A stretch of 45,206 nucleotides of DNA from Escherichia phage Envy. The stretch is from sequence record NC_031081.1; one strand, written 5' to 3'. Of the stretch, positions 1 through 45,206 are shown in pieces. Each line of letters starts with the position of its first letter. Positions within the stretch are counted from its first letter, which is position 1. A program made the position numbers and the translations under genes. The notes under the pieces are model-generated. The model was not told where the DNA came from. It ran no database searches and saw only the letters and a program-made list of their open reading frames with translations.

Positions 1-127
1 GCGCTGGGCTTTATCCTGCATTGTGTGCAAGGCGTGTTAATGGTGGCATGGATGATTAGACATCCGACCCGCTGGCTGGATGACGGCTATAGCGAAGCTG
101 CCGTCGATTGGGTGGAGAAGAACATCA
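1..127. repeat. terminal direct repeat of the window, identical to 45080..45206; circular or terminally redundant genome, unit about 45079 bp
   Basis: first 127 bases read identically to last 127 bases. Confidence 0.9.
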
Positions 128-201
128 ACCGCCCGCCGTTAAGCTGGATCGAGAACGCGACCAACTACGTTACCCGAAATCTTTTTAATGAAAATGCTTG
201 A
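1..201 (+). CDS. small membrane protein, 3' part; same gene as 45038..45206, wraps across window edge
   Basis: frame continues from ATG at 45038 (MNKVFAILLMFVIGALGFILHC...), hydrophobic helices, stop near 199-201. Confidence 0.45.
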   Translation, partial: ALGFILHCVQGVLMVAWMIRHPTRWLDDGYSEAAVDWVEKNINRPPLSWIENATNYVTRNLFNENA

Positions 202-7377: not shown

Positions 7378-7385
7378 TAAATTGG

Positions 7386-7414
7386 TTGCAGTACGGGATT
7401 GGTTGCATTATATT
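7386..7414 (+). promoter_or_regulatory. sigma70-like promoter (TTGCAG-17-TATATT) with two ATTGGTTGCA direct repeats
   Basis: hexamers and spacing upstream of 7461 CDS. Confidence 0.45.
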
Positions 7415-7415
7415 G

Positions 7416-7443
7416 AGGGTGTTCCGAAGGGAACGCCCTTTTT
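7416..7443 (+). terminator. terminator-like hairpin ending the upstream operon
   Basis: AGGGTGTTCC-gaa-GGGAACGCCCT then TTTTAAT. Confidence 0.45.
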
Positions 7444-7460
7444 AATATGAGGATTTGACA

Positions 7461-7703
7461 ATGAAACGAGTATTTTTTGATTACGACGGTGATTTACGGT
7501 TATGGGTGTGCATTGTGCTGTTCTTATTCTTTTGCCTCCTGCTGCCGATTTCCTGCACGTATAACCTCGATAAATATGAATGCCGTATTGTCTACGCAGA
7601 ACTAACAGGTCGTAACACCCAGTGGCGCTATGGCACTTGCTGGGTTGAAATGGACGGCAAATTTATACCACGCAAAGAAATTCGCATGACGGATATTAAA
7701 TAA
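7461..7703 (+). CDS. small membrane protein (about 80 aa)
   Basis: GAGGA RBS 7 nt before ATG; hydrophobic stretch LWVCIVLFLFFCLLLPI. Confidence 0.5.
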   Translation: MKRVFFDYDGDLRLWVCIVLFLFFCLLLPISCTYNLDKYECRIVYAELTGRNTQWRYGTCWVEMDGKFIPRKEIRMTDIK

Positions 7704-8161
7704 TGAAAATTTTACAAGAAGAGAAAGCGTATTGGGTAGCACAGTGTCTTGAAGCCCGCGAGAAAGCGGAAGGAGCTACCGCGCTGGCGGACACCTACCT
7801 GGCGAGCTATGAAGGCGAGGAGAAGGTCCGAAAGGAATTAGAGGAACGCTTCGAACTGCTGGGCGAACTGATCACCATTATGCAGCGCACCGGGTACACA
7901 ACATCCGTATCGCTCACCCGGCTAACCGCCGATGCCCTGCGCGAGCATTACAAACTGGCCGAGGAGTACGTCCGTCCGAAGGGCAGCCAGTCTTCGATCC
8001 CGCGGAAAGGACTGGTGCATATAGCGTGGCGTGCAAACGGCAGCTACTATTCCGATAGCCGACCGCTCAGTAAGGAGGAGATGTCCAGAGTCCAACGCGT
8101 GCTATCCAGCGGAAAGAAAACCGCCCTGTATGCGATAGATCCAGACTATGCAGAAGAGTGA
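7703..8161 (+). CDS. hypothetical protein (152 aa)
   Basis: ORF coupled to neighbours (TAAATAATG). Confidence 0.55.
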   Translation: MKILQEEKAYWVAQCLEAREKAEGATALADTYLASYEGEEKVRKELEERFELLGELITIMQRTGYTTSVSLTRLTADALREHYKLAEEYVRPKGSQSSIPRKGLVHIAWRANGSYYSDSRPLSKEEMSRVQRVLSSGKKTALYAIDPDYAEE

Positions 8162-8838: not shown

Positions 8839-9350
8839 AATTACTGATTTGCGATTTGGATGGCGTTATTAACGGTTCAAGCGATGCGCGTGCCGACCTG
8901 GTTCCGGGCATAAAAACAAAATCCACCTTTTGGGCGAAGTGGCACAAAGCGCATATACGCGAAGATCTGAACATGGATATGCTGCCGCTGCTGACCATGT
9001 ACAAAGAGCAAGGCTTCGAGATCGCGTATCTGACCAACCGGCAGCGAGAATGCTGGGAGACTACCGTCGAGCAATTGGAAGTATTCCCCGTAGGCCGGTT
9101 GTTTATGCGCCACATGCTGGACGATACCCCGCCGCCAGAGTTTAAAGCGTGCGCCGTGTTCAAAATGGTCTGCTATGCGGACGTATCGGAACTGGTCATC
9201 ATTGAAGACTGCCCGAAGAACATCGCGGCCATTCGACGGGCGTGCAGCGATCTGGTCTCGAAAATTTATGCGATAAACGTTGCAAAATTTACTTGCAACC
9301 AACCTATTGGTTGCACTATAGTTAACTCGTCGGGGCGATATGGCCCCTAA
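8835..9350 (+). CDS. HAD-superfamily hydrolase-like protein
   Basis: N-terminal LICDLDGVI (HAD motif I DxDG); 3' end overlaps the next promoter. Confidence 0.55.
   Translation: MKLLICDLDGVINGSSDARADLVPGIKTKSTFWAKWHKAHIREDLNMDMLPLLTMYKEQGFEIAYLTNRQRECWETTVEQLEVFPVGRLFMRHMLDDTPPPEFKACAVFKMVCYADVSELVIIEDCPKNIAAIRRACSDLVSKIYAINVAKFTCNQPIGCTIVNSSGRYGP
9293..9322 (+). promoter_or_regulatory. sigma70-like promoter (TTGCAA-18-TATAGT) overlapping inverted repeat TGCAACCAA-ccta-TTGGTTGCA
   Basis: hexamers plus perfect 9-bp inverted repeat. Confidence 0.45.
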
Positions 9351-9960: not shown

Positions 9961-10536
9961 ATGTACGGCGAATATGAAATATCCGGTAAACAATTCCACC
10001 TGGCGGCAATGATAGCAAGCATCGAGTTTGACCAATGGCGCTTAAAGTCCGACGCGTGCAAGCAAAGCCGACTGGTCGGTGTGCTGGGCGAAATGTTTGC
10101 GGGCATGTACCTTGAAGGGCAAGCAGGCGGGCGCAGTTGTATACCGCAAGGTTTGCTCATGCGTACCGGCTTGTTTAGTGCCAATACCATTGATCGCGGC
10201 GATATCATCATGGTCGGCAAGCGCAAGGTGAAGTCCGGTCCCGACTTCCGCGAGCATGTGATCGATGCCGTCTGGACCTACGAGGTTAAAGCCACCAGCG
10301 GCATTCGCCGCGGACTGGTTGAGGCACGTTGCGCTCGCGAGTATCTTGCCCGTCGAGTTGCTGGTGTTATCCTGGTGAGCGTAGATTTCGGACAACATAA
10401 CGCGCACGGCGTGATTGAAGATATCGCGGAACCATACGTCATTGTTAATGACTGGCCCTTAGTGGAAGTGGAGGGAAAGGAGTATTACGAAAGCCCGTTG
10501 GTGCGGCGCAAAATGGCCTGGGAAAACTCAAACTAG
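9961..10536 (+). CDS. hypothetical protein (191 aa), weak PD-(D/E)xK-like D...EVK signature
   Basis: AGGA RBS; IDAVWTYEVKAT segment. Confidence 0.55.
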   Translation: MYGEYEISGKQFHLAAMIASIEFDQWRLKSDACKQSRLVGVLGEMFAGMYLEGQAGGRSCIPQGLLMRTGLFSANTIDRGDIIMVGKRKVKSGPDFREHVIDAVWTYEVKATSGIRRGLVEARCAREYLARRVAGVILVSVDFGQHNAHGVIEDIAEPYVIVNDWPLVEVEGKEYYESPLVRRKMAWENSN

Positions 10537-10566: not shown

Positions 10567-12981
10567 TTTCTTCAACGCCGCGATCTCGGCCTTCAAATCC
10601 TCCACCTGCTTATTGAGATATTGAACACACCCCATCAAGTCCATTACGATCGGGTTAACGTCGATGGATGGGCGGTCCGTCATCTTCTCCCCGATCTTGT
10701 TGCCGTCTTCGTCGAGAATATCCTCGATCGGGAACTCGTGGTGCTTAACGTACTGCGGCGCAATTAACTCCGCTTCTTCGGCGATAATACCGAAGCGCTG
10801 GCGGGCCTGCTCATCATCCTTATACACGAAGTTAACAAGGCGCTGGCTGTTAATGCGGTCCATAGCTTCGCTTGCGTCCGCATCGGCAATATCTTTCTTA
10901 TACTCGCGCCCTGATGTGCCTTGCAGCGCGATAGTCCCCGATGCGGTAGTCGGGAAGTTAAGCATAATTTCGCCGGTACGGTTCCCATCCTTACGTCGCA
11001 TAAACAGGCGAAAATGTCGAGTGCCGCTCTTGTCTAGTGCCGGTTCGAAGAACGTCCTACCGCCTACGACGTCGTTCGGCACGGTTTCGCCTACGGTGTA
11101 GTACGGTTCGAATGCAAATTGCAGGTAAGACCCGCGGCTTACTGCCAGGCTACCAACGACATCTGACCCTGAACTGTTCACCGTAAACTTGCCCGGCAAG
11201 GTCATCTCGCCTTTGGTGTTAAAGTCGATGCCTGAACTCTGCGCCGTCTCCAGGTTAGTGATCGCCAGGCGGGCGTAAGTCTCACCGTCGATATTCGCAC
11301 GGACGCGCAGCTTTGCTTCCGAGTGTAAAGAAGTGCCAACACGATATTCAGACACAATGCTTCCGCCGTCTGCCGTAGTGCCCGCTGGCGGTTTAGTGGC
11401 GTCGCCGTTGATTACCGACCACGACGTATTAGCGGCGGCGAATCCGCCTGACGCTCGAATAACCCACACGCCCATGAAGTTATTGGGGCGCAACTCCGAT
11501 ACGGTCCGGCCATAGATCGCGTTGACCTTCGAGGCGTCCATGTTAATGATGCCGTAGGAGACTGCGCCGTTACCAACAGGTAGGTTGCCTGGCGACCGAT
11601 ATTGCGAAGCCGCTCCACCAGCCCCGTGGAACGCGCCACTTTCATGGTTGATAATACTTGCGGCCCCGCCGCCGTGTAATTCGACGCGGCCTGTGATGTT
11701 AGGTGCTCCTGATTCGTAGATATACCCATCGTTGCCACTTTGCCCGCCGTCGCCCCTGCCGAACAAGCCGAATATGGACCCAGGCTGAACGCCATTACGG
11801 TCCGGCACTCGGAAGGTAGTTGTGCCGTCACCCGTAGAATACTTTCCGCGCTGATTTGGGTTTGCCAGCCAGGTCTCGTCACTAATTGGCGACAGCATTT
11901 GCGCATACGCCCAAAGCTCAGGCCAATCAGCTCGGTTTAACAATTGACCGTCGGACACCACTTCGTAAGGTTGAATATACGCGCGGCTGTCCCGTAAATG
12001 GAAATCACCTACGCCATAGTTCATGACGCCGTTCATTGTAGGGCCGACAGTGCCGGTGTTGATCAGATTCTGCACCCAGCGCTTTGTCGTGGCGTCGTAG
12101 TCACCAACAGGGTCGCCAGCCAGTGGTGTTGCCCCGTCCGGGCGAACGTTAAGCCAGGCTTGCGGTTTGTCGGTGAGTCCCGCCAGGTTGCCTGATTTTG
12201 TTAGCAAGTTATCCGCGTTAACGCTTTGCGCCCACTCCTCGGCCTGATCGCGGAATCCCTGCGCGGCTGTGCTGGCAGCTTGCGCGTCCGTCTTCGCGGT
12301 GTTGGCCTCGTCCCTCATAACGCCGGTGTCAGTCTTGATCTGGTTCGTCTGGTCTTTGATGGCCTGCGTATCAGTCTTAATCTGGTCCGTCTGCGTCTTG
12401 ATGGTATTGGTGGCGTCGTGGATAGCCTGCGTATCCGCCTTAATCTGGTCAGTCTGCGTCTTGATTGTATTGGTATCGTTTTTGAAGCCTTCGGCCTCAT
12501 CCCGAAATCCTTGCGCTGCGGATTTCGATGCTTCGGCTTGCGCTGCGAGGTCGCGCATCTCAACGGGGTCTACGTTCTTAAGCAATTCCGACAGGTATCC
12601 CCATGACATTCCCTGCATGACTTGCCCGTTAGGTAGCGTCACGGTGATTTCTTCAGCGTCGCCGAAGATTGCACGCCAGTTGTTTTCATCTGCGATCATC
12701 AATCGCAACGCTTTCTGTGCCTGTACGGTAACGCCCATCGTTGCCAGCGACATGGTATCGCGCTTAACACCATCCCAAGCAAGGCCGGTTGCCGTTGGGC
12801 CGTCGAACGGCAACACTAGCGTAAGCGCCGTGTTACTTTCGATTGATGCGATCGCCACTGTGTAAGGCACTTGTCCTACCACCAGCGTTAAGAAGTCGCC
12901 AGCTTTAAACGCGGTAAACGTTGTGCCGACTCCTACTACCGCCGTGCTATTGTTCGTTACGGATAGCGTACCCGCTGCCAT
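10564..12981 (-). CDS. tail fiber protein with C-terminal intramolecular chaperone (peptidase S74-like)
   Basis: about 805 aa from ATG at 12981 (GAGGA RBS); repeat-rich coiled coil, Gly-rich domain, C-terminal region typical of self-cleaving chaperone domains. Confidence 0.75.
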   Translation of the reverse strand: MAAGTLSVTNNSTAVVGVGTTFTAFKAGDFLTLVVGQVPYTVAIASIESNTALTLVLPFDGPTATGLAWDGVKRDTMSLATMGVTVQAQKALRLMIADENNWRAIFGDAEEITVTLPNGQVMQGMSWGYLSELLKNVDPVEMRDLAAQAEASKSAAQGFRDEAEGFKNDTNTIKTQTDQIKADTQAIHDATNTIKTQTDQIKTDTQAIKDQTNQIKTDTGVMRDEANTAKTDAQAASTAAQGFRDQAEEWAQSVNADNLLTKSGNLAGLTDKPQAWLNVRPDGATPLAGDPVGDYDATTKRWVQNLINTGTVGPTMNGVMNYGVGDFHLRDSRAYIQPYEVVSDGQLLNRADWPELWAYAQMLSPISDETWLANPNQRGKYSTGDGTTTFRVPDRNGVQPGSIFGLFGRGDGGQSGNDGYIYESGAPNITGRVELHGGGAASIINHESGAFHGAGGAASQYRSPGNLPVGNGAVSYGIINMDASKVNAIYGRTVSELRPNNFMGVWVIRASGGFAAANTSWSVINGDATKPPAGTTADGGSIVSEYRVGTSLHSEAKLRVRANIDGETYARLAITNLETAQSSGIDFNTKGEMTLPGKFTVNSSGSDVVGSLAVSRGSYLQFAFEPYYTVGETVPNDVVGGRTFFEPALDKSGTRHFRLFMRRKDGNRTGEIMLNFPTTASGTIALQGTSGREYKKDIADADASEAMDRINSQRLVNFVYKDDEQARQRFGIIAEEAELIAPQYVKHHEFPIEDILDEDGNKIGEKMTDRPSIDVNPIVMDLMGCVQYLNKQVEDLKAEIAALKK
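12290..12500. repeat. about 33-bp periodic direct repeats inside tail fiber gene (encode TQTDQIKTDTQAIKD-type heptad repeats)
   Basis: repeated GTCTTGATCTGGT/CGTCTGCGTCTTGAT units. Confidence 0.55.
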
Positions 12982-19868: not shown

Positions 19869-20503
19869 CTTACGAATCCAATAGCAGTCTTAAGGGTGGC
19901 GGACACCGTTGCCGTGTAGTGCCCGTTGTCTGTGTACGACAAGCTCGAACGCTCGACCACGAATAAACCTGTTTCGCCATCCGGCGCGGTGACAACAAAC
20001 GGTTTGACGAAGTGCCCGCGAAGGAAGTTGTAAACCAGTTTAGGGTTGCACCACTTGTCAGTAGTCAGTCCGATGAATTGCACGGGGAACTGTTTCGTTT
20101 CGGCGTTCGGGCCGTCCGCGATGTTCTGACCGTAACCGTTACCAAACTGCAATTCCTCGGACCGGAAAGCCAACTGCACGTCTCCGCCACCTTGCAATTG
20201 CATGTGCCAGTAATAGGGCCATTCGTTTGATCGCGGGTCGTGCGCTTCGATTAGCTCATAAGCTGCACCGGCTTTTGTCGGTCCGGCCCAGTTATCCGCC
20301 AGGGTGATGACGGTGTTAGAGTTGAATGCCGCAATTTTTCCGGTGTAGTCGTTGCCGTCGATGCGGGTAAATACGCGGACCTTCCCGATCTCGCTCAAGA
20401 ACGCGGTTCCCACGCCTGTGATGGTCTTACTTCCCTTAGTTAGTGTGATTGTACCTTGCGCCATAAAAAAGCCCCCACGTTGTAGTGAGGGCCATTTTAT
20501 CAT
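19865..20503 (-). CDS. minor tail protein (lambda gpM-like)
   Basis: FGNGYGQ resembles gpM FGDGYSQ; ATGA overlap with tape measure stop (alternative start 20464). Confidence 0.6.
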   Translation of the reverse strand: MIKWPSLQRGGFFMAQGTITLTKGSKTITGVGTAFLSEIGKVRVFTRIDGNDYTGKIAAFNSNTVITLADNWAGPTKAGAAYELIEAHDPRSNEWPYYWHMQLQGGGDVQLAFRSEELQFGNGYGQNIADGPNAETKQFPVQFIGLTTDKWCNPKLVYNFLRGHFVKPFVVTAPDGETGLFVVERSSLSYTDNGHYTATVSATLKTAIGFVR

Positions 20504-23142: not shown

Positions 23143-23205
23143 TATGCAGTCCCCTTTTTTATGCAGTTGCCGATTGACATTGTATCAGCGAATTTAAAAC
23201 AAACC

Positions 23206-23535
23206 TTATTCAGTCTCAGACGAGGGGGGCCATTGACCCCCGTCTAGTCTGAAAGACTGGGCTTTGTCCCGCCTGTCCCGATCGGCTAAACCCCGCGGCA
23301 GCACTGGCGGGGCGGGGGTGCTGTCCCGCTTTGTCCCGCCCCTTGTTTGTCCCGCTTTTTGTCCCGTTTGGTTTATGCAGTAAAACTGAATAGGTATGCG
23401 CTTTTCAGAGGGGTGCCAGATCGGGACGTCCCGCTTGTCCCGCTTTTAGTTTATGCAATAATAGTAAATAAGTATGCAGTTTTTGAGGGGCGGGACAAAA
23501 CGGGACGTCCCGCTTGTCCCGCTTCATTATGCGGG
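23206..23535. repeat. noncoding element copy A: conserved hairpin, GTCCCGC iterons (8 or more), palindrome GGGACGTCCC, three AT-rich TTTATGCA units
   Basis: first ~58 bp and a ~53-bp iteron block identical to copy B at 39428..39625. Confidence 0.8.
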
Positions 23536-29086: not shown

Positions 29087-29116
29087 TTGCAATCCTCGTA
29101 TTGGTTGCACTATATT
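29087..29116 (+). promoter_or_regulatory. sigma70-like promoter (TTGCAA-18-TATATT) followed by operator-like palindrome TTGGT-tgcac-ACCAA (29116-29130)
   Basis: -10 plus leader shares about 23 identical nt with promoter at 39245..39273. Confidence 0.5.
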
Positions 29117-29145
29117 GGTTGCACACCAACAACGAGGACACACAA

Positions 29146-32976: not shown

Positions 32977-34362
32977 TTAGTAGAAGTCTACAGTTGGAAC
33001 AACGGCGATCGGACGAATCACTGGGAACAGGTGCGCAATTGGATAGCCCGCGGCATCGTTCATGTGGTCCACACCGGCGGTTTTATCCGGCTCGCCTTTC
33101 TTCAGGTCGTAGACCTGCTGTTCCAGACATTTCGCTAGTGTAGGGCATTTATCCAGGTTGACAAAATACTGGCGCACGCCCTTCGAGTTGCACATCATCG
33201 TATTCATCGCGATCAATCGGTCTTTCACGGGAGGGTTAACGCTGTCATACTCCACCTCGAAGCCCGCGTCTTCCAGTTGCGCGATATCGGACGACGATGC
33301 GTTGACAGTCTTGCGAGACTTGCCGCTGCTATCCGGGTAAACAACAACACGACCGGCAGCACAATGATCGGGGTATCGCTCCTCGATCGCCTCAATCATA
33401 GCCGGGGTATCAAACAGGTCCACAAATTCATCCACTGCGTGAATCTCGTCGCGGAACTCCTTGTTTTCGGTGATGCGCTGCCGTCTGACGTACACGACCG
33501 CCGCCATTTTCGTGACGTTAAAGTCCATACCGATAATCAGCGTGTCGTCCGGCTGCACTTCTTCGGTGCTGGCGTTCTCCTCGCGGTTGAACATCTTGTA
33601 CACCGCGCCCGACGTAAGGTTAACAAACAGGCCGTTCAGGTACGCATCAATCAGGTTAGCCGGGTACTGACTGCGCAGCGTGTCGATAAAGTCTGCCGGT
33701 AGATGGTGGTTGTCGGTGGTCTTCGCCCGGATCAGGCGCTTTTGGCTATCCTTCTCCACCTCGAAGATTTGATACATCGCCCGGTAGCCTTCAGGCGTTG
33801 ACACGATGACGAACTGGCGGACGAAGCCCGCACGCAGACGACCGAGCAATTTGTGATACGCCGCCAGCGCGACGTCTTGCTTAGTAGTGTCGAATTCATC
33901 GGCGACAATCCATGCGGCGTTGACCCCGATCAGGCGGGTATAGTTCTCCATTGATTCACAGATAACGCGGGTCCATTTCCCTTTCACCAGCACGCTATAA
34001 ATCTTGTCCTGCTTATTGAACTTCCACCGGAATCCAGCCTCGTCGAATGCCTTCTCCAGTTCCGGATACATGATTTTAACCAGGAGCGGAATAGTCGGTT
34101 CTGTAACGATGCCGTCATGCCCTGGGTTCAGGGTTAAAAGCTGGATGACCTTACGCGCAGCGACCCACGACTTTCCACCGCCGAAGCCGGAACACAGGCC
34201 GAGGATTTTAGTCTTCGTGTCCCGCAGTAGTTCGACCTGGTGCGGCAGGCAATCAGGCTGGTAAAGACGCACCGCCTGCGCAACGCGTGTCGGGCGCGGT
34301 GGTCGGTTGCGCTTTGCAATCGCGCGCTCAAGTGCGCGGTGTTCTGCCGCATAGTTACGCAT
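32977..34362 (-). CDS. terminase large subunit
   Basis: 461 aa; Walker A-like GFGGGKS; C-terminal nuclease-like region; TAATG coupling with TerS. Confidence 0.9.
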   Translation of the reverse strand: MRNYAAEHRALERAIAKRNRPPRPTRVAQAVRLYQPDCLPHQVELLRDTKTKILGLCSGFGGGKSWVAARKVIQLLTLNPGHDGIVTEPTIPLLVKIMYPELEKAFDEAGFRWKFNKQDKIYSVLVKGKWTRVICESMENYTRLIGVNAAWIVADEFDTTKQDVALAAYHKLLGRLRAGFVRQFVIVSTPEGYRAMYQIFEVEKDSQKRLIRAKTTDNHHLPADFIDTLRSQYPANLIDAYLNGLFVNLTSGAVYKMFNREENASTEEVQPDDTLIIGMDFNVTKMAAVVYVRRQRITENKEFRDEIHAVDEFVDLFDTPAMIEAIEERYPDHCAAGRVVVYPDSSGKSRKTVNASSSDIAQLEDAGFEVEYDSVNPPVKDRLIAMNTMMCNSKGVRQYFVNLDKCPTLAKCLEQQVYDLKKGEPDKTAGVDHMNDAAGYPIAHLFPVIRPIAVVPTVDFY

Positions 34363-34913
34363 TATTCACCCTGGCCTTTACCGGTAGGTTCGACAACGAC
34401 GTCGCCGTTATCATCTTCGTCGTCATCCAGCGGTACATCGTCGCGGACGCCGTGGTTTGCTTTAAGCAGGAACGTAGCGAAGCCCGCCGCGATGGTTACG
34501 CCGCCAGCTTCCATCAGGAAAGTTTTCTGCAACTCCATTGCGTCCGCCATCGCCTCGGCAAACTCCTCATGCGCACGCGCCCAGCGATACAAGCAAGCTA
34601 CGCCCACGCCGATTTCAGCGGCAAATCGGCCGAAGGTTGGCATTTTGTTCCGGGGGATTACTTGCGCAGCGCCTTTATCGGAGTAGTTGACCTGCCATGC
34701 GTCGGCGTCGGCAAAATAGCGGCGAAGCTGGTCGCAGTAAACGGATCGGTAGTCAGTAGGGCGTCCACATTTGCCGCCTTTACGGCGCTTTCCGTACTCG
34801 ATTTCAGGTCCGAGATTGGTGTGCTCGGTTTGCTCGCCTGGTTTACGGCGAGGGGTTACTGCTACTCGTCCGTCCAGTTTGGCGCGTCGGCCCTTAACTT
34901 TAATTTCTGCCAT
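34362..34913 (-). CDS. terminase small subunit
   Basis: about 183 aa from internal ATG (MAEIKV...); KMPTFGRFAAEIGVGVACLYRWARAH helix-turn-helix typical of TerS; acidic tail. Confidence 0.6.
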   Translation of the reverse strand: MAEIKVKGRRAKLDGRVAVTPRRKPGEQTEHTNLGPEIEYGKRRKGGKCGRPTDYRSVYCDQLRRYFADADAWQVNYSDKGAAQVIPRNKMPTFGRFAAEIGVGVACLYRWARAHEEFAEAMADAMELQKTFLMEAGGVTIAAGFATFLLKANHGVRDDVPLDDDEDDNGDVVVEPTGKGQGE

Positions 34914-39216: not shown

Positions 39217-39244
39217 CGTTCAGTCCTCTTGTTGGTGTGCAACC

Positions 39245-39273
39245 AATATAGCAGGGCGCCAGGCAGGGTGCAA
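39245..39273 (-). promoter_or_regulatory. sigma70-like promoter (TTGCAC-17-TATATT) with palindrome TTGGT-N5-ACCAA at 39232-39246
   Basis: -10 and leader near-identical to promoter at 29087..29116. Confidence 0.5.
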
Positions 39274-39427
39274 CCAATATTAATCACGCGCATGAAAAAG
39301 TTGATCGCTATCTGCTGTGACTGCAAACCGCATTTTCACTCAGCATAATACAACCTGCATTGGTTGCCTAGTTCATCGACGACCGCACTTAGCATCATGC
39401 TGCCGTGTATTTTGCAATCCCCGGATT

Positions 39428-39625
39428 TTATTCAGTCTCAGACGAGGGGGGCCATTGACCCCCGTCTAGTCTGAAAGACTGGGGTGCTGTCCCGCTGTCC
39501 CGCTCCTCTGGAAGCCGCGCCATCCGTGGCGGGACGGGGGTGCTGTCCCGCTTTGTCCCGCCCCTTGTTTGTCCCGCTTTTTGTCCCGCTTACTTTATGC
39601 AATAAAACTGCATAACTATTCACTA
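39428..39625. repeat. noncoding element copy B: same hairpin, GTCCCGC iterons and TTTATGCA AT-rich unit as copy A
   Basis: identical ~58-bp hairpin module and ~53-bp iteron block at same relative spacing (108 bp). Confidence 0.8.
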
Positions 39626-39673
39626 TATTCACACTACACGGCAACCAATACGACCAGATAAAAACACTCAAAA

Positions 39674-39755
39674 TGGCGACCAATGCGCGCAAATTTTAAT
39701 CGTCTAGCGATATGGGAATCCCCATATTGGCGACCAATGCGCGCAAATTTTAATC
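39674..39755. repeat. two 28-bp direct repeats (TGGCGACCAATGCGCGCAAATTTTAATC) flanking palindrome ATATGGG-aatc-CCCATAT; second copy overlaps primase stop
   Basis: perfect direct repeat, period about 54 bp. Confidence 0.7.
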
Positions 39756-42014
39756 TTTTAAGTCGTCATCGGTCGCCGAAAGCGTGATGGGTATCTTCGT
39801 TTTGATGACGATATTCGACGACCCATAGATGGCCCCGGTGTGCGGATCGGTATAAAAACCGAGCACGCCGCGCTCGACCATATCGTCAATTGCCTTCGTC
39901 GATGTGCCACCTTTCGCAAGCCCAGCCTGGCGGACAATTGCCGATTTGCTGAATCCGGTATGGTCCGGGTTATCTTCCATCAGTTTTTCCAGCGCTGCAT
40001 AAAGCACTTTCTCTTTTTCGTTGCGCGGTCCTGCGGCGTTCTCTTCCTTAACTGCGGCCTTGCCAGCGGCCTTTGCCTGCTCAATGGCGAACGGTGCCAG
40101 GGCGACCGGTACGAGGTAAAGAGTCTCGTCGCGTGGCGTGGAGGCAATCGGCTTGACGTCCCATCCGGCAACCACGTCGCCGAAGTCTGGCCCGGTGCTG
40201 GTGGACTGGTGCGCCTCGAACGCTTCTGACTTGCGGAGATCCACCTTCACCTTGCACTTGAGCAGGACGAAGCCACGCGGCGCTTGCTTGATGCCGTTAC
40301 GTGCTTTTTCGTGATACAGGTTCAATTGGCCTGGCTGGTTGTCGTCCGGCTGTTCAAGGAAGAAAGCAGAATCGACAGCACCATGAAGCGCGCCGGATCC
40401 GCGTGGCGTTCGGCTTCCGTTTGCACCCTTAGCCGGGTGGTGGATGACGCCCGCACTGCCACCTGTATTTTCCGCGATGGCCTTCAGCGCTTTGACCACT
40501 TCGCCCATATCGCTGGCGTTGTTCTCGTCGAACGGTTTTGCATCGGCGGACCGCAGCGCAACAGTCTGGTTGAGTGAGTCGAACGCCACCAGGCCAACCG
40601 GCTCGCCGTTAGCGGTGCGGTTGATGAAGCTGATAACTTCACGCAAGCCGGATTTGCTGGTGATATCCCAGCCTCGTGATTGCAGATCGATAATGTGCAG
40701 CTTGTCCAGGTCGTGCTCATATTTAATCTGCAATGCTTCCTTACGCTGGTTAGAGGCTTCGCCACCTTCCGCGTCGAAATAGAAGCAATGAGACTGGACG
40801 ACCTTCGCACCGCCGAACGGAATACCGGCGGCAACCGCGCCCATTTGGCCCAGCACATAGAACGATTTACCGATGTTCGACTCGCCCGCCATATACCAGG
40901 TCGATTTAAAGTTAATCAACCCCTCGATGATCGGGTCGTGCTTACTGAACAGCGCAACCGGCTCGTTGTCCAGGTCTGCATCAGTACACACGCCGTACTC
41001 GTCGCCGTCTCCGACCGCATCAACGATATGTTCATAGCACGATTCCACTTCCTCATCGTCCAGTCCCGGAAGGATGGCGGCGATTTGCTTACGTGACATG
41101 TTGTGCGGCTCGACGTTCAGGTGGTCCGGGATCCCGATAAGACGTAGCGCCAGGTGCTGGTGTCTGTTCAGTTCCGAGCAACACTCGTTGCCGGTGTGCA
41201 TACACTTGAAACGGATCTCGCCATCCTTGACCATGATAGCCGTCGACCCTTCGCCGCTGTGCAGATGTTCGTTCGGGCACGGCACTTCATAACCGCGACC
41301 GGAAGATAACTCATCGAATCCTGCCTGGAAGCACCAGTCCAGAATGCCGTCTGCCACTGCGTCGTCGCCCTGGGTAAGCTCGCGGCGTACTTCCTCCTTC
41401 TCCACGCCCAACTTATCCGCCAGGCGAAGCAGACGACGGACGCGGGCACGCTTGCCGTAGTGGCACTTAATAACAGACTGCTGGTGTGGCAGGTACATCA
41501 GGCGGTTTGTGTCTTTCGTGCAATCGTCGAAGTCCACATCTGACAGACCAAGTTGGTGTAATAGCGCATACTGGACACGGCCCAGGTCTTCAGCCGGTAC
41601 AGGCTTGTCCGTGAGTACCAGGAATCGAGCGCAACGCGTGCCGCCTTTCAGCGGGTGGCGGTCGCCGGTTGTGGTGTGAAATACATGTTCCAGTCCCGCG
41701 TCGATGAACGCCTTACGGCAGCGGCGCAGGGTGCGGGTGTCGGTACGGTCAATATCGAAGAACAGGATCGAGCGGTCCACTGCACTGGTCTTGCGGCGCA
41801 AGCCGTCACTGGTATACGCCACGATACCATCGGCCTTACGCTTGCGGCGCGCATACTCGGCTTTATCTTCCGTTTTGTTGATATGCACCGAGGAGATTTC
41901 TTTCGCATCATTGATAAATTCGAAAAACTCTTCGGTAGTCATCTGGAAGTTTTCCGCCCTGGCTTTTTCGCCTTTTTTAGCGGGTCGTGTTACAGCGAAT
42001 TTAATCAAGCTCAT
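39750..42014 (-). CDS. DNA primase-helicase (prim-pol-like N-terminus, RecA/DnaB-like ATPase C-terminal half)
   Basis: 754 aa; LFFDIDRTD acidic motif; Cys/His cluster; Walker A GESNIGKS. Confidence 0.75.
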   Translation of the reverse strand: MSLIKFAVTRPAKKGEKARAENFQMTTEEFFEFINDAKEISSVHINKTEDKAEYARRKRKADGIVAYTSDGLRRKTSAVDRSILFFDIDRTDTRTLRRCRKAFIDAGLEHVFHTTTGDRHPLKGGTRCARFLVLTDKPVPAEDLGRVQYALLHQLGLSDVDFDDCTKDTNRLMYLPHQQSVIKCHYGKRARVRRLLRLADKLGVEKEEVRRELTQGDDAVADGILDWCFQAGFDELSSGRGYEVPCPNEHLHSGEGSTAIMVKDGEIRFKCMHTGNECCSELNRHQHLALRLIGIPDHLNVEPHNMSRKQIAAILPGLDDEEVESCYEHIVDAVGDGDEYGVCTDADLDNEPVALFSKHDPIIEGLINFKSTWYMAGESNIGKSFYVLGQMGAVAAGIPFGGAKVVQSHCFYFDAEGGEASNQRKEALQIKYEHDLDKLHIIDLQSRGWDITSKSGLREVISFINRTANGEPVGLVAFDSLNQTVALRSADAKPFDENNASDMGEVVKALKAIAENTGGSAGVIHHPAKGANGSRTPRGSGALHGAVDSAFFLEQPDDNQPGQLNLYHEKARNGIKQAPRGFVLLKCKVKVDLRKSEAFEAHQSTSTGPDFGDVVAGWDVKPIASTPRDETLYLVPVALAPFAIEQAKAAGKAAVKEENAAGPRNEKEKVLYAALEKLMEDNPDHTGFSKSAIVRQAGLAKGGTSTKAIDDMVERGVLGFYTDPHTGAIYGSSNIVIKTKIPITLSATDDDLKD

Positions 42015-42620: not shown

Positions 42621-43136
42621 ATGTTTGAACAAATCGTAAACTTGATTACTCGCGGCGTAGTAGCGCTGGAAACCATCGCTAAGCATTATGAAACCGTTGG
42701 CGCTGCCGTTGGTAAGCAGGAAGATAAAAAGCCATCTAAGGCGAAAAAAGAAGTCGTCGAAGACGACGACGATGGCGCTGAAGACGAAGCACCGGCGAAA
42801 ACCAAAAAAGCACCGGCTAAAGGTAAGGCTAAAAAAGAAGTCGTAGAAGATGACGACGACGATGCCGAAGACGAAAAACCGGCTAAGTCTAAAAAAGCAC
42901 CGGCAAAAGGCAAAGGCAAGAAAGATGCCGATCCGCTGGCAGAGATGCGCGACGAGATCAAACAGTATGCCGCGATTATTGCCGGTGGTGACGACGACGA
43001 CGCGAACGACGAATTTGACGACCTGCTGGAATCGTTCGAGATCAAATCAATCGCCAAGCTGGAAGATGAAGACGTCGAAGACTTCCACAAAGATCTTAAA
43101 GAAATCGTCGAAACTTATTTCGAACTGGAAGATTAA
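42621..43136 (+). CDS. acidic low-complexity protein with tandem 29-aa repeats
   Basis: 171 aa; repeats KKEVVEDDDDGAEDEAPAKTKKAPAKGKA x2; first gene after promoter. Confidence 0.6.
   Translation: MFEQIVNLITRGVVALETIAKHYETVGAAVGKQEDKKPSKAKKEVVEDDDDGAEDEAPAKTKKAPAKGKAKKEVVEDDDDDAEDEKPAKSKKAPAKGKGKKDADPLAEMRDEIKQYAAIIAGGDDDDANDEFDDLLESFEIKSIAKLEDEDVEDFHKDLKEIVETYFELED
42744..42917. repeat. 87-bp tandem repeat x2 inside CDS 42621..43136
   Basis: two adjacent units about 85 percent identical. Confidence 0.7.
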
Positions 43137-43615: not shown

Positions 43616-45045
43616 TGGCGATTAAACCAAAACGTAGAACGCAATCCGGTAGCAATACGGAACACTCATTACTCGGCCCGTCCGGTGCTAAAAAATGGAT
43701 GGGTTGCCCCGCCGCCCTGGTGGTGGAAAAAGATATCCCGAACGAATCCGGGCAAGCGGCGATTAACGGTACGAGTATGCACACCGTATCTGAAGTCGTG
43801 CTCAACCGTATTATCGCCGGTGAGAAGCTGATAACCGCTAAGACGTACAAAGGGTGCTACGTCGAGAACGAAGGTAAGGGACCGGTAAAGGCACACCCGA
43901 AAGCACCGAAAGGCGGCGTGCTGGTCAACGACGACATGGTGAAACAGTGCGACGCATACATCGACCACTGGCGACCGCTCCTCGAAGTGGCGGAGTTTGT
44001 TCAGCTTGAGATGCGCGCCGATCTCACCCGCGTCCTACACTCTGGCTTCGAGATCGACGGCAACCGGGTTAAGACGTTCGGAACTGCAGATATGGTCATG
44101 GTCATGAAGAAGACCGACGGCACGTACATGCTGATTGTTGGCGACCTGAAGACGGGGCGGCATAAGGTCGAGGCGAAAGAAAACAAACAGCTGATGTTGT
44201 ATGCGCTGGGCCTGCTGCGCAAGCTGAAAACCATGTACGACATTACGACCGTGCGCCTGGTTATCTTCCAGCCGTATTGCGGCGGGGCGTCGGAGTGGGA
44301 TATTTCGGTAGAAGCGCTGGAGATATTCGCGAAGTTTGCGGCCAAGCGTGCTATCGCCGCCCTGGAAGCGTACGCCCGCGGCAAAAAGGGACTCACCCGT
44401 GCCGACTTCCGACCGAGCGTTGATGCGTGTCAGTGGTGCAGATTTGCGGATCAGTGTAGCGCCCGCGCTAAGGCTGCAATCGACACGATGACCCCACCAA
44501 CGGCAACAGACGAAGACCTGGGCGACGACGTGAGTATTGCGACAGAGGAAGAATGCGCCAATCACGACCGCAATATGGCCCGCGAAGCCCGGAAGGCGGC
44601 CCGACGTGCGAAGCGTGGTAAGAAAGAAGCGGCCCCCGGCGCTATGAGCGCGGCGGAACTGCGCAAGGCTTATGAAGGCCTTGATGCGATGCGCCAGCAC
44701 ATCAAGGCTATCGAGTCCGCGGTATTCAAGGCGGTCATGGCGGGCGAAGGTGAATCGCTAGGCCTCAAGATGGTTGCCGGTAAGGAAGGGATCCGCAAGT
44801 GGGCGGACGAGAGCGAAGTGATTGAAATCTTCACGAAGGCCCGGATCAAGCGCGATGTGATGTACAAAGAAACATTGCTCAGCCCGACCGATGCCGAGAA
44901 GGTACTGAAGGACGAAAAACCGAAAGTGTGGGCGAAGCTGTGTGATAAAATCACGCGCGCACCAGCTAAACCGGTATTAGCACCCATCGACGACCCGCGC
45001 CCTGCGTGGTCTGTAGCTACTGACGAGGACTTAAGCAATGAATAA
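43615..45045 (+). CDS. PD-(D/E)xK nuclease, DUF2800-like, with C-terminal Cys cluster
   Basis: GPSGAKKWMGCPAAL, VGDLKTGRHKVEAKENKQLMLYALGL and CQWCRFADQC recalled as DUF2800-type features. Confidence 0.65.
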   Translation: MAIKPKRRTQSGSNTEHSLLGPSGAKKWMGCPAALVVEKDIPNESGQAAINGTSMHTVSEVVLNRIIAGEKLITAKTYKGCYVENEGKGPVKAHPKAPKGGVLVNDDMVKQCDAYIDHWRPLLEVAEFVQLEMRADLTRVLHSGFEIDGNRVKTFGTADMVMVMKKTDGTYMLIVGDLKTGRHKVEAKENKQLMLYALGLLRKLKTMYDITTVRLVIFQPYCGGASEWDISVEALEIFAKFAAKRAIAALEAYARGKKGLTRADFRPSVDACQWCRFADQCSARAKAAIDTMTPPTATDEDLGDDVSIATEEECANHDRNMAREARKAARRAKRGKKEAAPGAMSAAELRKAYEGLDAMRQHIKAIESAVFKAVMAGEGESLGLKMVAGKEGIRKWADESEVIEIFTKARIKRDVMYKETLLSPTDAEKVLKDEKPKVWAKLCDKITRAPAKPVLAPIDDPRPAWSVATDEDLSNE

Positions 45046-45206
45046 AGTATTCGCAATCTTATTGATGTTTGTTATCGGCGCGCTGGGCTTTATCCTGCAT
45101 TGTGTGCAAGGCGTGTTAATGGTGGCATGGATGATTAGACATCCGACCCGCTGGCTGGATGACGGCTATAGCGAAGCTGCCGTCGATTGGGTGGAGAAGA
45201 ACATCA
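45038..45206 (+). CDS. small membrane protein, 5' part (continues at 1..201 through terminal repeat)
   Basis: ATG overlapping nuclease stop; hydrophobic N-terminus. Confidence 0.45.
   Translation, partial: MNKVFAILLMFVIGALGFILHCVQGVLMVAWMIRHPTRWLDDGYSEAAVDWVEKNI
45080..45206. repeat. terminal direct repeat, identical to 1..127
   Basis: identical sequence at both window ends. Confidence 0.9.

Follow-up and report, generated by a model that had tools for sequence, protein, structure and literature searches.

The two ends of the stretch of DNA analysed here, 45,206 nt in full and referred to below as the window, repeat each other over 127 nt, and this duplication is an artefact of how the assembly is represented and no biological feature of the phage DNA. 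Its cause is specifically the k-mer overlap (k = 127) of the SPAdes assembler, and we consider it very probable that this overlap sits on a circular contig, whose closure is most likely owed to headful-made, terminally redundant and permuted virion DNA. The non-redundant genome is 45,079 bp long, the published and deposited figure of 45,206 being an overcount by 127 bp.

An earlier note on this DNA had taken the identity of the two ends over 127 bp as the mark of a circular assembly opened at an arbitrary point inside a small membrane-protein gene (45038 wrapping to 201), and had held that the true physical ends cannot be read from the sequence. Direct comparison of the window ends confirmed the identity, positions 1-127 and 45080-45206 agreeing at 127/127 positions, and 127 is the sole length at which a prefix of the window equals its suffix. 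A repeat search of the window returned the same pair at 100% identity with a spacing of 45079, and the probability of 127 identical bases arising by chance is about 10^-76. The first 60 nt of the 127-mer have one occurrence in the 45,079-bp unit and, likewise, a single one in the record KX534339.1, at record position 7644.

This record (Escherichia phage Sloth, genus Dhillonvirus, from human bladder microbiota) is 100% identical to window bases 1-22000 and provides the comparison on which the argument turns. Both sequences are 45,206 nt long, yet they are different strings: base 1 of the window is base 7644 of the record, and KX534339.1 carries an exact 127-nt prefix-suffix overlap of its own, which maps to another part of the window (Table 1). 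When the window is trimmed of one copy of the 127-mer and the resulting 45,079-nt unit is written three times in a row, the result contains the entire record as a substring; therefore the same circle has two linear forms in which the 127-nt overlap is differently placed, and therefore the 127-mer marks no physical site. The circular assembly proposed earlier is thus borne out, the window minus 127 nt being a 45,079-bp circle and KX534339.1 another rotation of it. Given that the window opens in an 80-aa gene and KX534339.1 at a distance of 7.6 kb from it, the window represents the KX534339.1 circle in a rotated or newly assembled form, and the shift could reflect either rotation by a pipeline or an independent re-assembly. 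In this respect it differs from a plain SPAdes overlap: the overlap of the window sits elsewhere than that of the deposited contig. The sequence was either shifted by 7,643 nt along the circle or assembled anew, and in the process acquired another overlap of equal length.

The announcement of the KX534339.1 phage (Malki et al. 2016, PMC5122675) reports Nextera XT, MiSeq 2x250 reads and SPAdes 3.7.1 run with the careful option and k values from 21 to 127, giving 1507x coverage and a length of 45,206. The length of the overlap, 127, is the largest SPAdes k used for this phage. A path of the de Bruijn graph that closes on itself and is output as a linear contig repeats its first k bases as its last k, with k = 127 in the present case. 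End overlaps of 127 bp produced by SPAdes have been described as artificial by Philipson et al. 2018 (PMC5923482), and an overlap of just this kind and length, 127 bp, was trimmed off in the announcement of phage U136B (PMC8104045). The overlaps in these reports and that of the window are alike in being exact direct repeats of the ends, in having the length of the largest k (127) with 2x250 reads, in their arbitrary position and in yielding a closed circle once one copy is trimmed. Gluttony (KX534336), a sibling from the same study and pipeline as KX534339.1, also has an exact 127-nt overlap, which corresponds to roughly window 10178-10304 in reverse orientation, within a different gene. Examination of the record ends of the siblings Lust, Pride and Wrath, from the same study, revealed no 127-nt overlap, so Gluttony is the only same-pipeline control. 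That the opening point is arbitrary, as the earlier note had stated, is supported by KX534339.1, which opens at a distance of 7.6 kb and there has a 127-nt overlap too, by Gluttony, which opens at a non-homologous site, and by 151 relatives that read across the window junction with one 127-mer (see below). The end identity is a SPAdes overlap on a closed contig, so the genome is fully assembled and its real DNA ends are left uninformed; the statement that the physical ends are unreadable from the sequence was correct.

How the virion DNA acquires its ends can be approached through the terminase genes and the relatives of the phage. The earlier picture of a circular genome is best refined to a circular map and, most likely, a linear, headful-packaged virion DNA. 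The circle closes at 45,079 bp with no fixed ends, and relatives were likewise 'circularized' on assembly. In the Pfam scan, the large terminase subunit (TerL) matched Terminase_6N/6C and no other terminase family; the terminases of lambda and HK97 fall in Pfam families other than Terminase_6, and the same scan identified neither a lambda GpA-type nor an HK97-type large terminase, which would have placed the phage among the cos-type ones. The small subunit (TerS) gave weak, sub-threshold Pfam matches to P22 gp3 and to the Sf6 small terminase, and a pac site, if present, would be expected in or near its gene. Outside the genus, TerL is closest to that of Salmonella phage LSPA1 (58%), followed by the TerL of Jerseyvirus and Kagunavirus (about 40%), and a TerL sequence search against all PDB chains found no match at E<=0.01. 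Headful packaging in Jerseyvirus is backed by PhageTerm, restriction profile and PFGE, and in the published tree the Jerseyvirus TerL clusters with those of Dhillonvirus K19 and of phage P1 (PMC10783031). Within the genus, published PhageTerm analyses report headful packaging for Opt-212, BF9 and UDS3lw, the first of them 94.9% identical to the window over 22 kb, and 'circular permutated' termini have been published for 4/5 bovine (bov) Dhillonviruses. The fifth, bov25_1D, was scored 'Fixed', and for EE09 (OR756193) PhageTerm called a COS 5' end with the sequence ATCTTAAGGG, so that the calls for the genus are not all in favour of headful packaging. PhageTerm results from relatives 93-95% identical to the window bear on the question more directly than a phylogeny of distant TerL sequences would.

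Taken with the terminase relatedness to the experimentally tested Jerseyvirus, the PhageTerm results on close relatives suggest that the virion ends are most likely of the headful (pac) type, terminally redundant and circularly permuted. Concatemers would be cleaved at a pac site in the vicinity of terS, or not far from that site, and headful packaging would yield linear, terminally redundant and circularly permuted molecules whose assembly closes as a circle. The circle would close because the virion DNA, linear as it is, is terminally redundant and circularly permuted, and therefore reads would span every position and no fixed end would survive assembly. The phage shares with headful systems (P22, SPP1 and P1; Jerseyvirus; Opt-212, BF9 and UDS3lw) the circular closure, a Terminase_6-type TerL about 40% identical to that of Jerseyvirus and close relatives scored as headful. 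True headful redundancy varies in position between molecules and is usually far longer than 127 bp. Unlike in those systems, the 127-mer is not headful redundancy, and for the phage studied here the packaging type is deduced from relatives.

The alternative that survives best accepts the overlap as artefactual and supposes that the virions have a fixed cos or another defined terminus elsewhere, such as an EE09-type site at about window 7410, which the assembler bridged. The EE09 COS 5' call and the 'Fixed' score of bov25_1D speak for it, and cos genomes likewise assemble as circles where ligated or concatemeric DNA is present. Nonetheless, the EE09 10-mer ATCTTAAGGG is missing at the homologous site of the window, which reads ATATTGAGGG, and a search for it across the window returned a lone match with <=1 mismatch, at 19887, as chance predicts. 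The EE09-type site also lies 27 kb from the terminase genes, TerL matches Terminase_6 alone among terminase families and four independent PhageTerm reports on relatives describe headful or permuted DNA. On this balance we regard a defined terminus elsewhere as highly improbable.

The EE09 end has a particular sequence neighbourhood. The COS 5' end (OR756193, 1-10) directly follows a pair of copies of the 8-mer TTGGTTGC; an HNH endonuclease gene lies upstream of it, and a terminator-like hairpin comes right after (about window 7378-7454). The 10-mer is not conserved in the window and the COS call conflicts with the headful calls for other Dhillonviruses; the call may reflect an artefact of PhageTerm or a nick at a specific site. 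The 8-mer itself occurs 18 times in the window against 2.1 expected, a count that 0/100 shuffles reach, and 12/18 copies lie in the approximately 6% of the genome without annotated CDS. Copies are often paired 5-14 nt apart or arranged as an inverted pair, several stand just upstream of a TATA(G/T)T -10-like hexamer and one pair is found 11 nt downstream of the stop of the junction-spanning gene. Pride, Gluttony, Lust, JLBYU37 and EE09 have between 17 and 20 copies. TTGGTTGC probably represents a conserved promoter or operator element of the phage. It can also be speculated that all or some Dhillonviruses are not purely headful and have a preferred fixed cleavage or nick site beside paired TTGGTTGC, a reading suggested because the EE09 COS call directly follows such a pair; this is a hint, and we think the idea quite unlikely to hold. 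If it were true, the 127-mer would still be an artefact, and a genuine site of DNA processing or regulation would lie in the neighbourhood of the junction.

Short exact direct terminal repeats occur in other phages, and the window, a linear record that begins and ends with the same short, exact direct repeat, resembles the T7-like phages that carry them; the 127 bp could accordingly be read as a genuine repeat of this kind, with physical ends at window 1 and 45206, and for one Dhillonvirus, bov25_1D, the termini were indeed scored as 'Fixed'. In T7-type phages the repeat has a constant place in the genome. Here, unlike in T7-like phages, the window and KX534339.1 hold the repeat at different positions of one and the same genome, the sibling Gluttony has its 127-nt overlap at another, unrelated place, and the KX534339.1 comparison effectively refutes this explanation. 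The repeat length is, moreover, the assembler's largest k, the supposed ends fall in mid-codon-run within a conserved gene and the close relatives are called headful. The site was also examined in relatives with a junction query of 1,479 nt, composed of window 44401-45079 followed by 1-800 and containing one copy of the 127-mer. It gave a single colinear match in 151/153 matching Dhillonvirus records, on either strand and between 8.5 kb and 42 kb along the record, so the position is not that of a fixed end. Nearly all of the 60 matches listed extend over 1,479/1,479 nt and the rest are a few nt off, except P-GXEC-L2P5, matched in two pieces. The junction of KX534339.1 is itself internal and colinear in 96/154 matching records, including those of Gluttony, Lust and Pride. 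A genuine terminal repeat at the window ends is thus so improbable that we give it hardly any credence.

The gene interrupted by the opening was as the earlier note had described it. Its open reading frame starts with the ATG at 45038, runs for 42 nt to 45079 and continues through window position 1 to the stop at 199-201 (243 nt, 80 aa); the product has a hydrophobic N-terminus of about 30 residues, and when the circle is closed on the overlap it matches PHROG 11211 over residues 1-80/80 (E=2.8e-53). The same protein is ANY29916.1 in GenBank, encoded at 7602-7844 of KX534339.1, which reads through with one copy of the 127-mer. The 58-aa GTG-initiated frame at 25-201 in the program-made list is a truncated remnant of this gene resulting from the linear opening. 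The weakest of the alternatives, a 45,206-bp circle with two real tandem copies of the 127-mer in this small gene, has the published length of 45,206 bp and nothing beyond it in its favour, and its probability is practically nil: abutting the two copies causes a frameshift after residue 56 and replaces the conserved C-terminal third of the protein, KX534339.1 reads through 7602-7844 with one copy, and the relatives hold one copy, with a 1,479-nt match to the 1,479-nt query among the matches listed.

Table 1. Coordinates in the window of the overlap, the wrapped gene, the terminase genes and the related sites discussed in the text.
Feature	Position	Strand	Remarks
Overlap, 5' copy	1..127		Real genome sequence, present once; holds codons 15-57 of the wrapped gene
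Overlap, 3' copy	45080..45206		Redundant copy of bases 1-127, to be trimmed to give the unit genome of 45,079 bp
Small membrane-protein gene (ANY29916.1), first 14 codons	45038..45079	+	ATG shares bases with the stop codon of the exonuclease gene upstream, in ATGAATAA
Same small membrane-protein gene, codons 15-80 and stop	1..201	+	PHROG 11211 match 1-80/80
Opening point and 127-nt overlap of KX534339.1	37437..37563		Spans a short spacer between two minus-strand genes adjoining the lysis genes
Terminase large subunit (TerL), maker of the virion DNA ends	32977..34362	-	Pfam Terminase_6N + Terminase_6C; PHROG terminase large subunit
Terminase small subunit (TerS)	34362..34913	-	PHROG 3064 'terminase', E=2e-73; annotated small terminase in relatives
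TTGGTTGC sites	212-235, 7382-7406, 9295-9314, 12999, 29101-29122, 39239-39648, 42545		Motif search

The start of the JLBYU37 record, which corresponds to window 202, was considered as a measured end and rejected: the very last bases of the record are the stop codon of the homologue of the wrapped gene, and the JLBYU37 paper reports just that the assembly circularised. This start is the annotator's choice and no measured end.

Other records of the genus call for attention in their own right. Completeness labels and sequences disagree in the sibling records of Lust, Pride and Sloth. Lust (KX534338) is labelled 'complete genome' yet is about 2.4 kb short, its ends falling at window 1516 and 44210 with the DNA polymerase gene truncated, and Pride (KX534341) is 'complete' yet begins with an inverted chimera of 300 nt, in which nt 1-137 and nt 121-300 map to one and the same part of the window in opposite orientations; Sloth (KX534339) is labelled 'partial' yet closes. 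The 44,513 nt of Gluttony (KX534336) include its 127-nt overlap, and the RefSeq copy, NC_031113, has the same length. PQ843332.1 (Escherichia phage P-GXEC-L2P5) is 88,607 bp long, about twice a Dhillonvirus genome, and contains two separate matches to the junction query; it probably represents a dimeric or concatemeric assembly, not a phage of 88 kb. MG065648.1 (Campylobacter phage A144) is 94% identical to the junction query and an Acinetobacter-labelled record also matches the genus, labels that likely reflect contamination or host misattribution.

Repeats of other kinds were noticed elsewhere in the window. A non-coding element of about 200 nt is duplicated at 23206-23402 and 39428-39624 with 85% identity (extended regions 23180-23530 and 39400-39760). 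Both copies are intergenic, one upstream of the tape-measure gene and the other downstream of the primase/helicase gene, and comprise a GC-rich hairpin and clustered TGTCCCGC repeats. The TGTCCCGC sequence occurs 17 times in the window against 2 expected, with 13/17 occurrences in the two element regions, and the element could represent origin iterons or an array of binding sites for a regulator. An Rfam scan returned no matches, including for the duplicated TGTCCCGC element, and a tRNA scan returned none either. Within coding sequence, an 87-nt tandem duplication of 84% identity (42737-42910) lies inside the ORF at 42621-43136 and encodes a Lys/Asp/Glu-rich repeat; related acidic repeats are found at the C-terminus of the Gp2.5-like SSB gene (852-980), and the tail-fibre gene contains a repeat of 21/42-nt period at 12290-12457.

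The value of the overlap is practical and it has no bearing on open biological questions. The unit length is corrected to 45,079 bp, that of Gluttony needs a like correction, and ORF calling on the linear window will break the 80-aa gene in two. Completeness calls based on direct terminal repeats must not be taken for physical terminal repeats; what the end overlap certifies is that the window represents one complete, closed phage genome.
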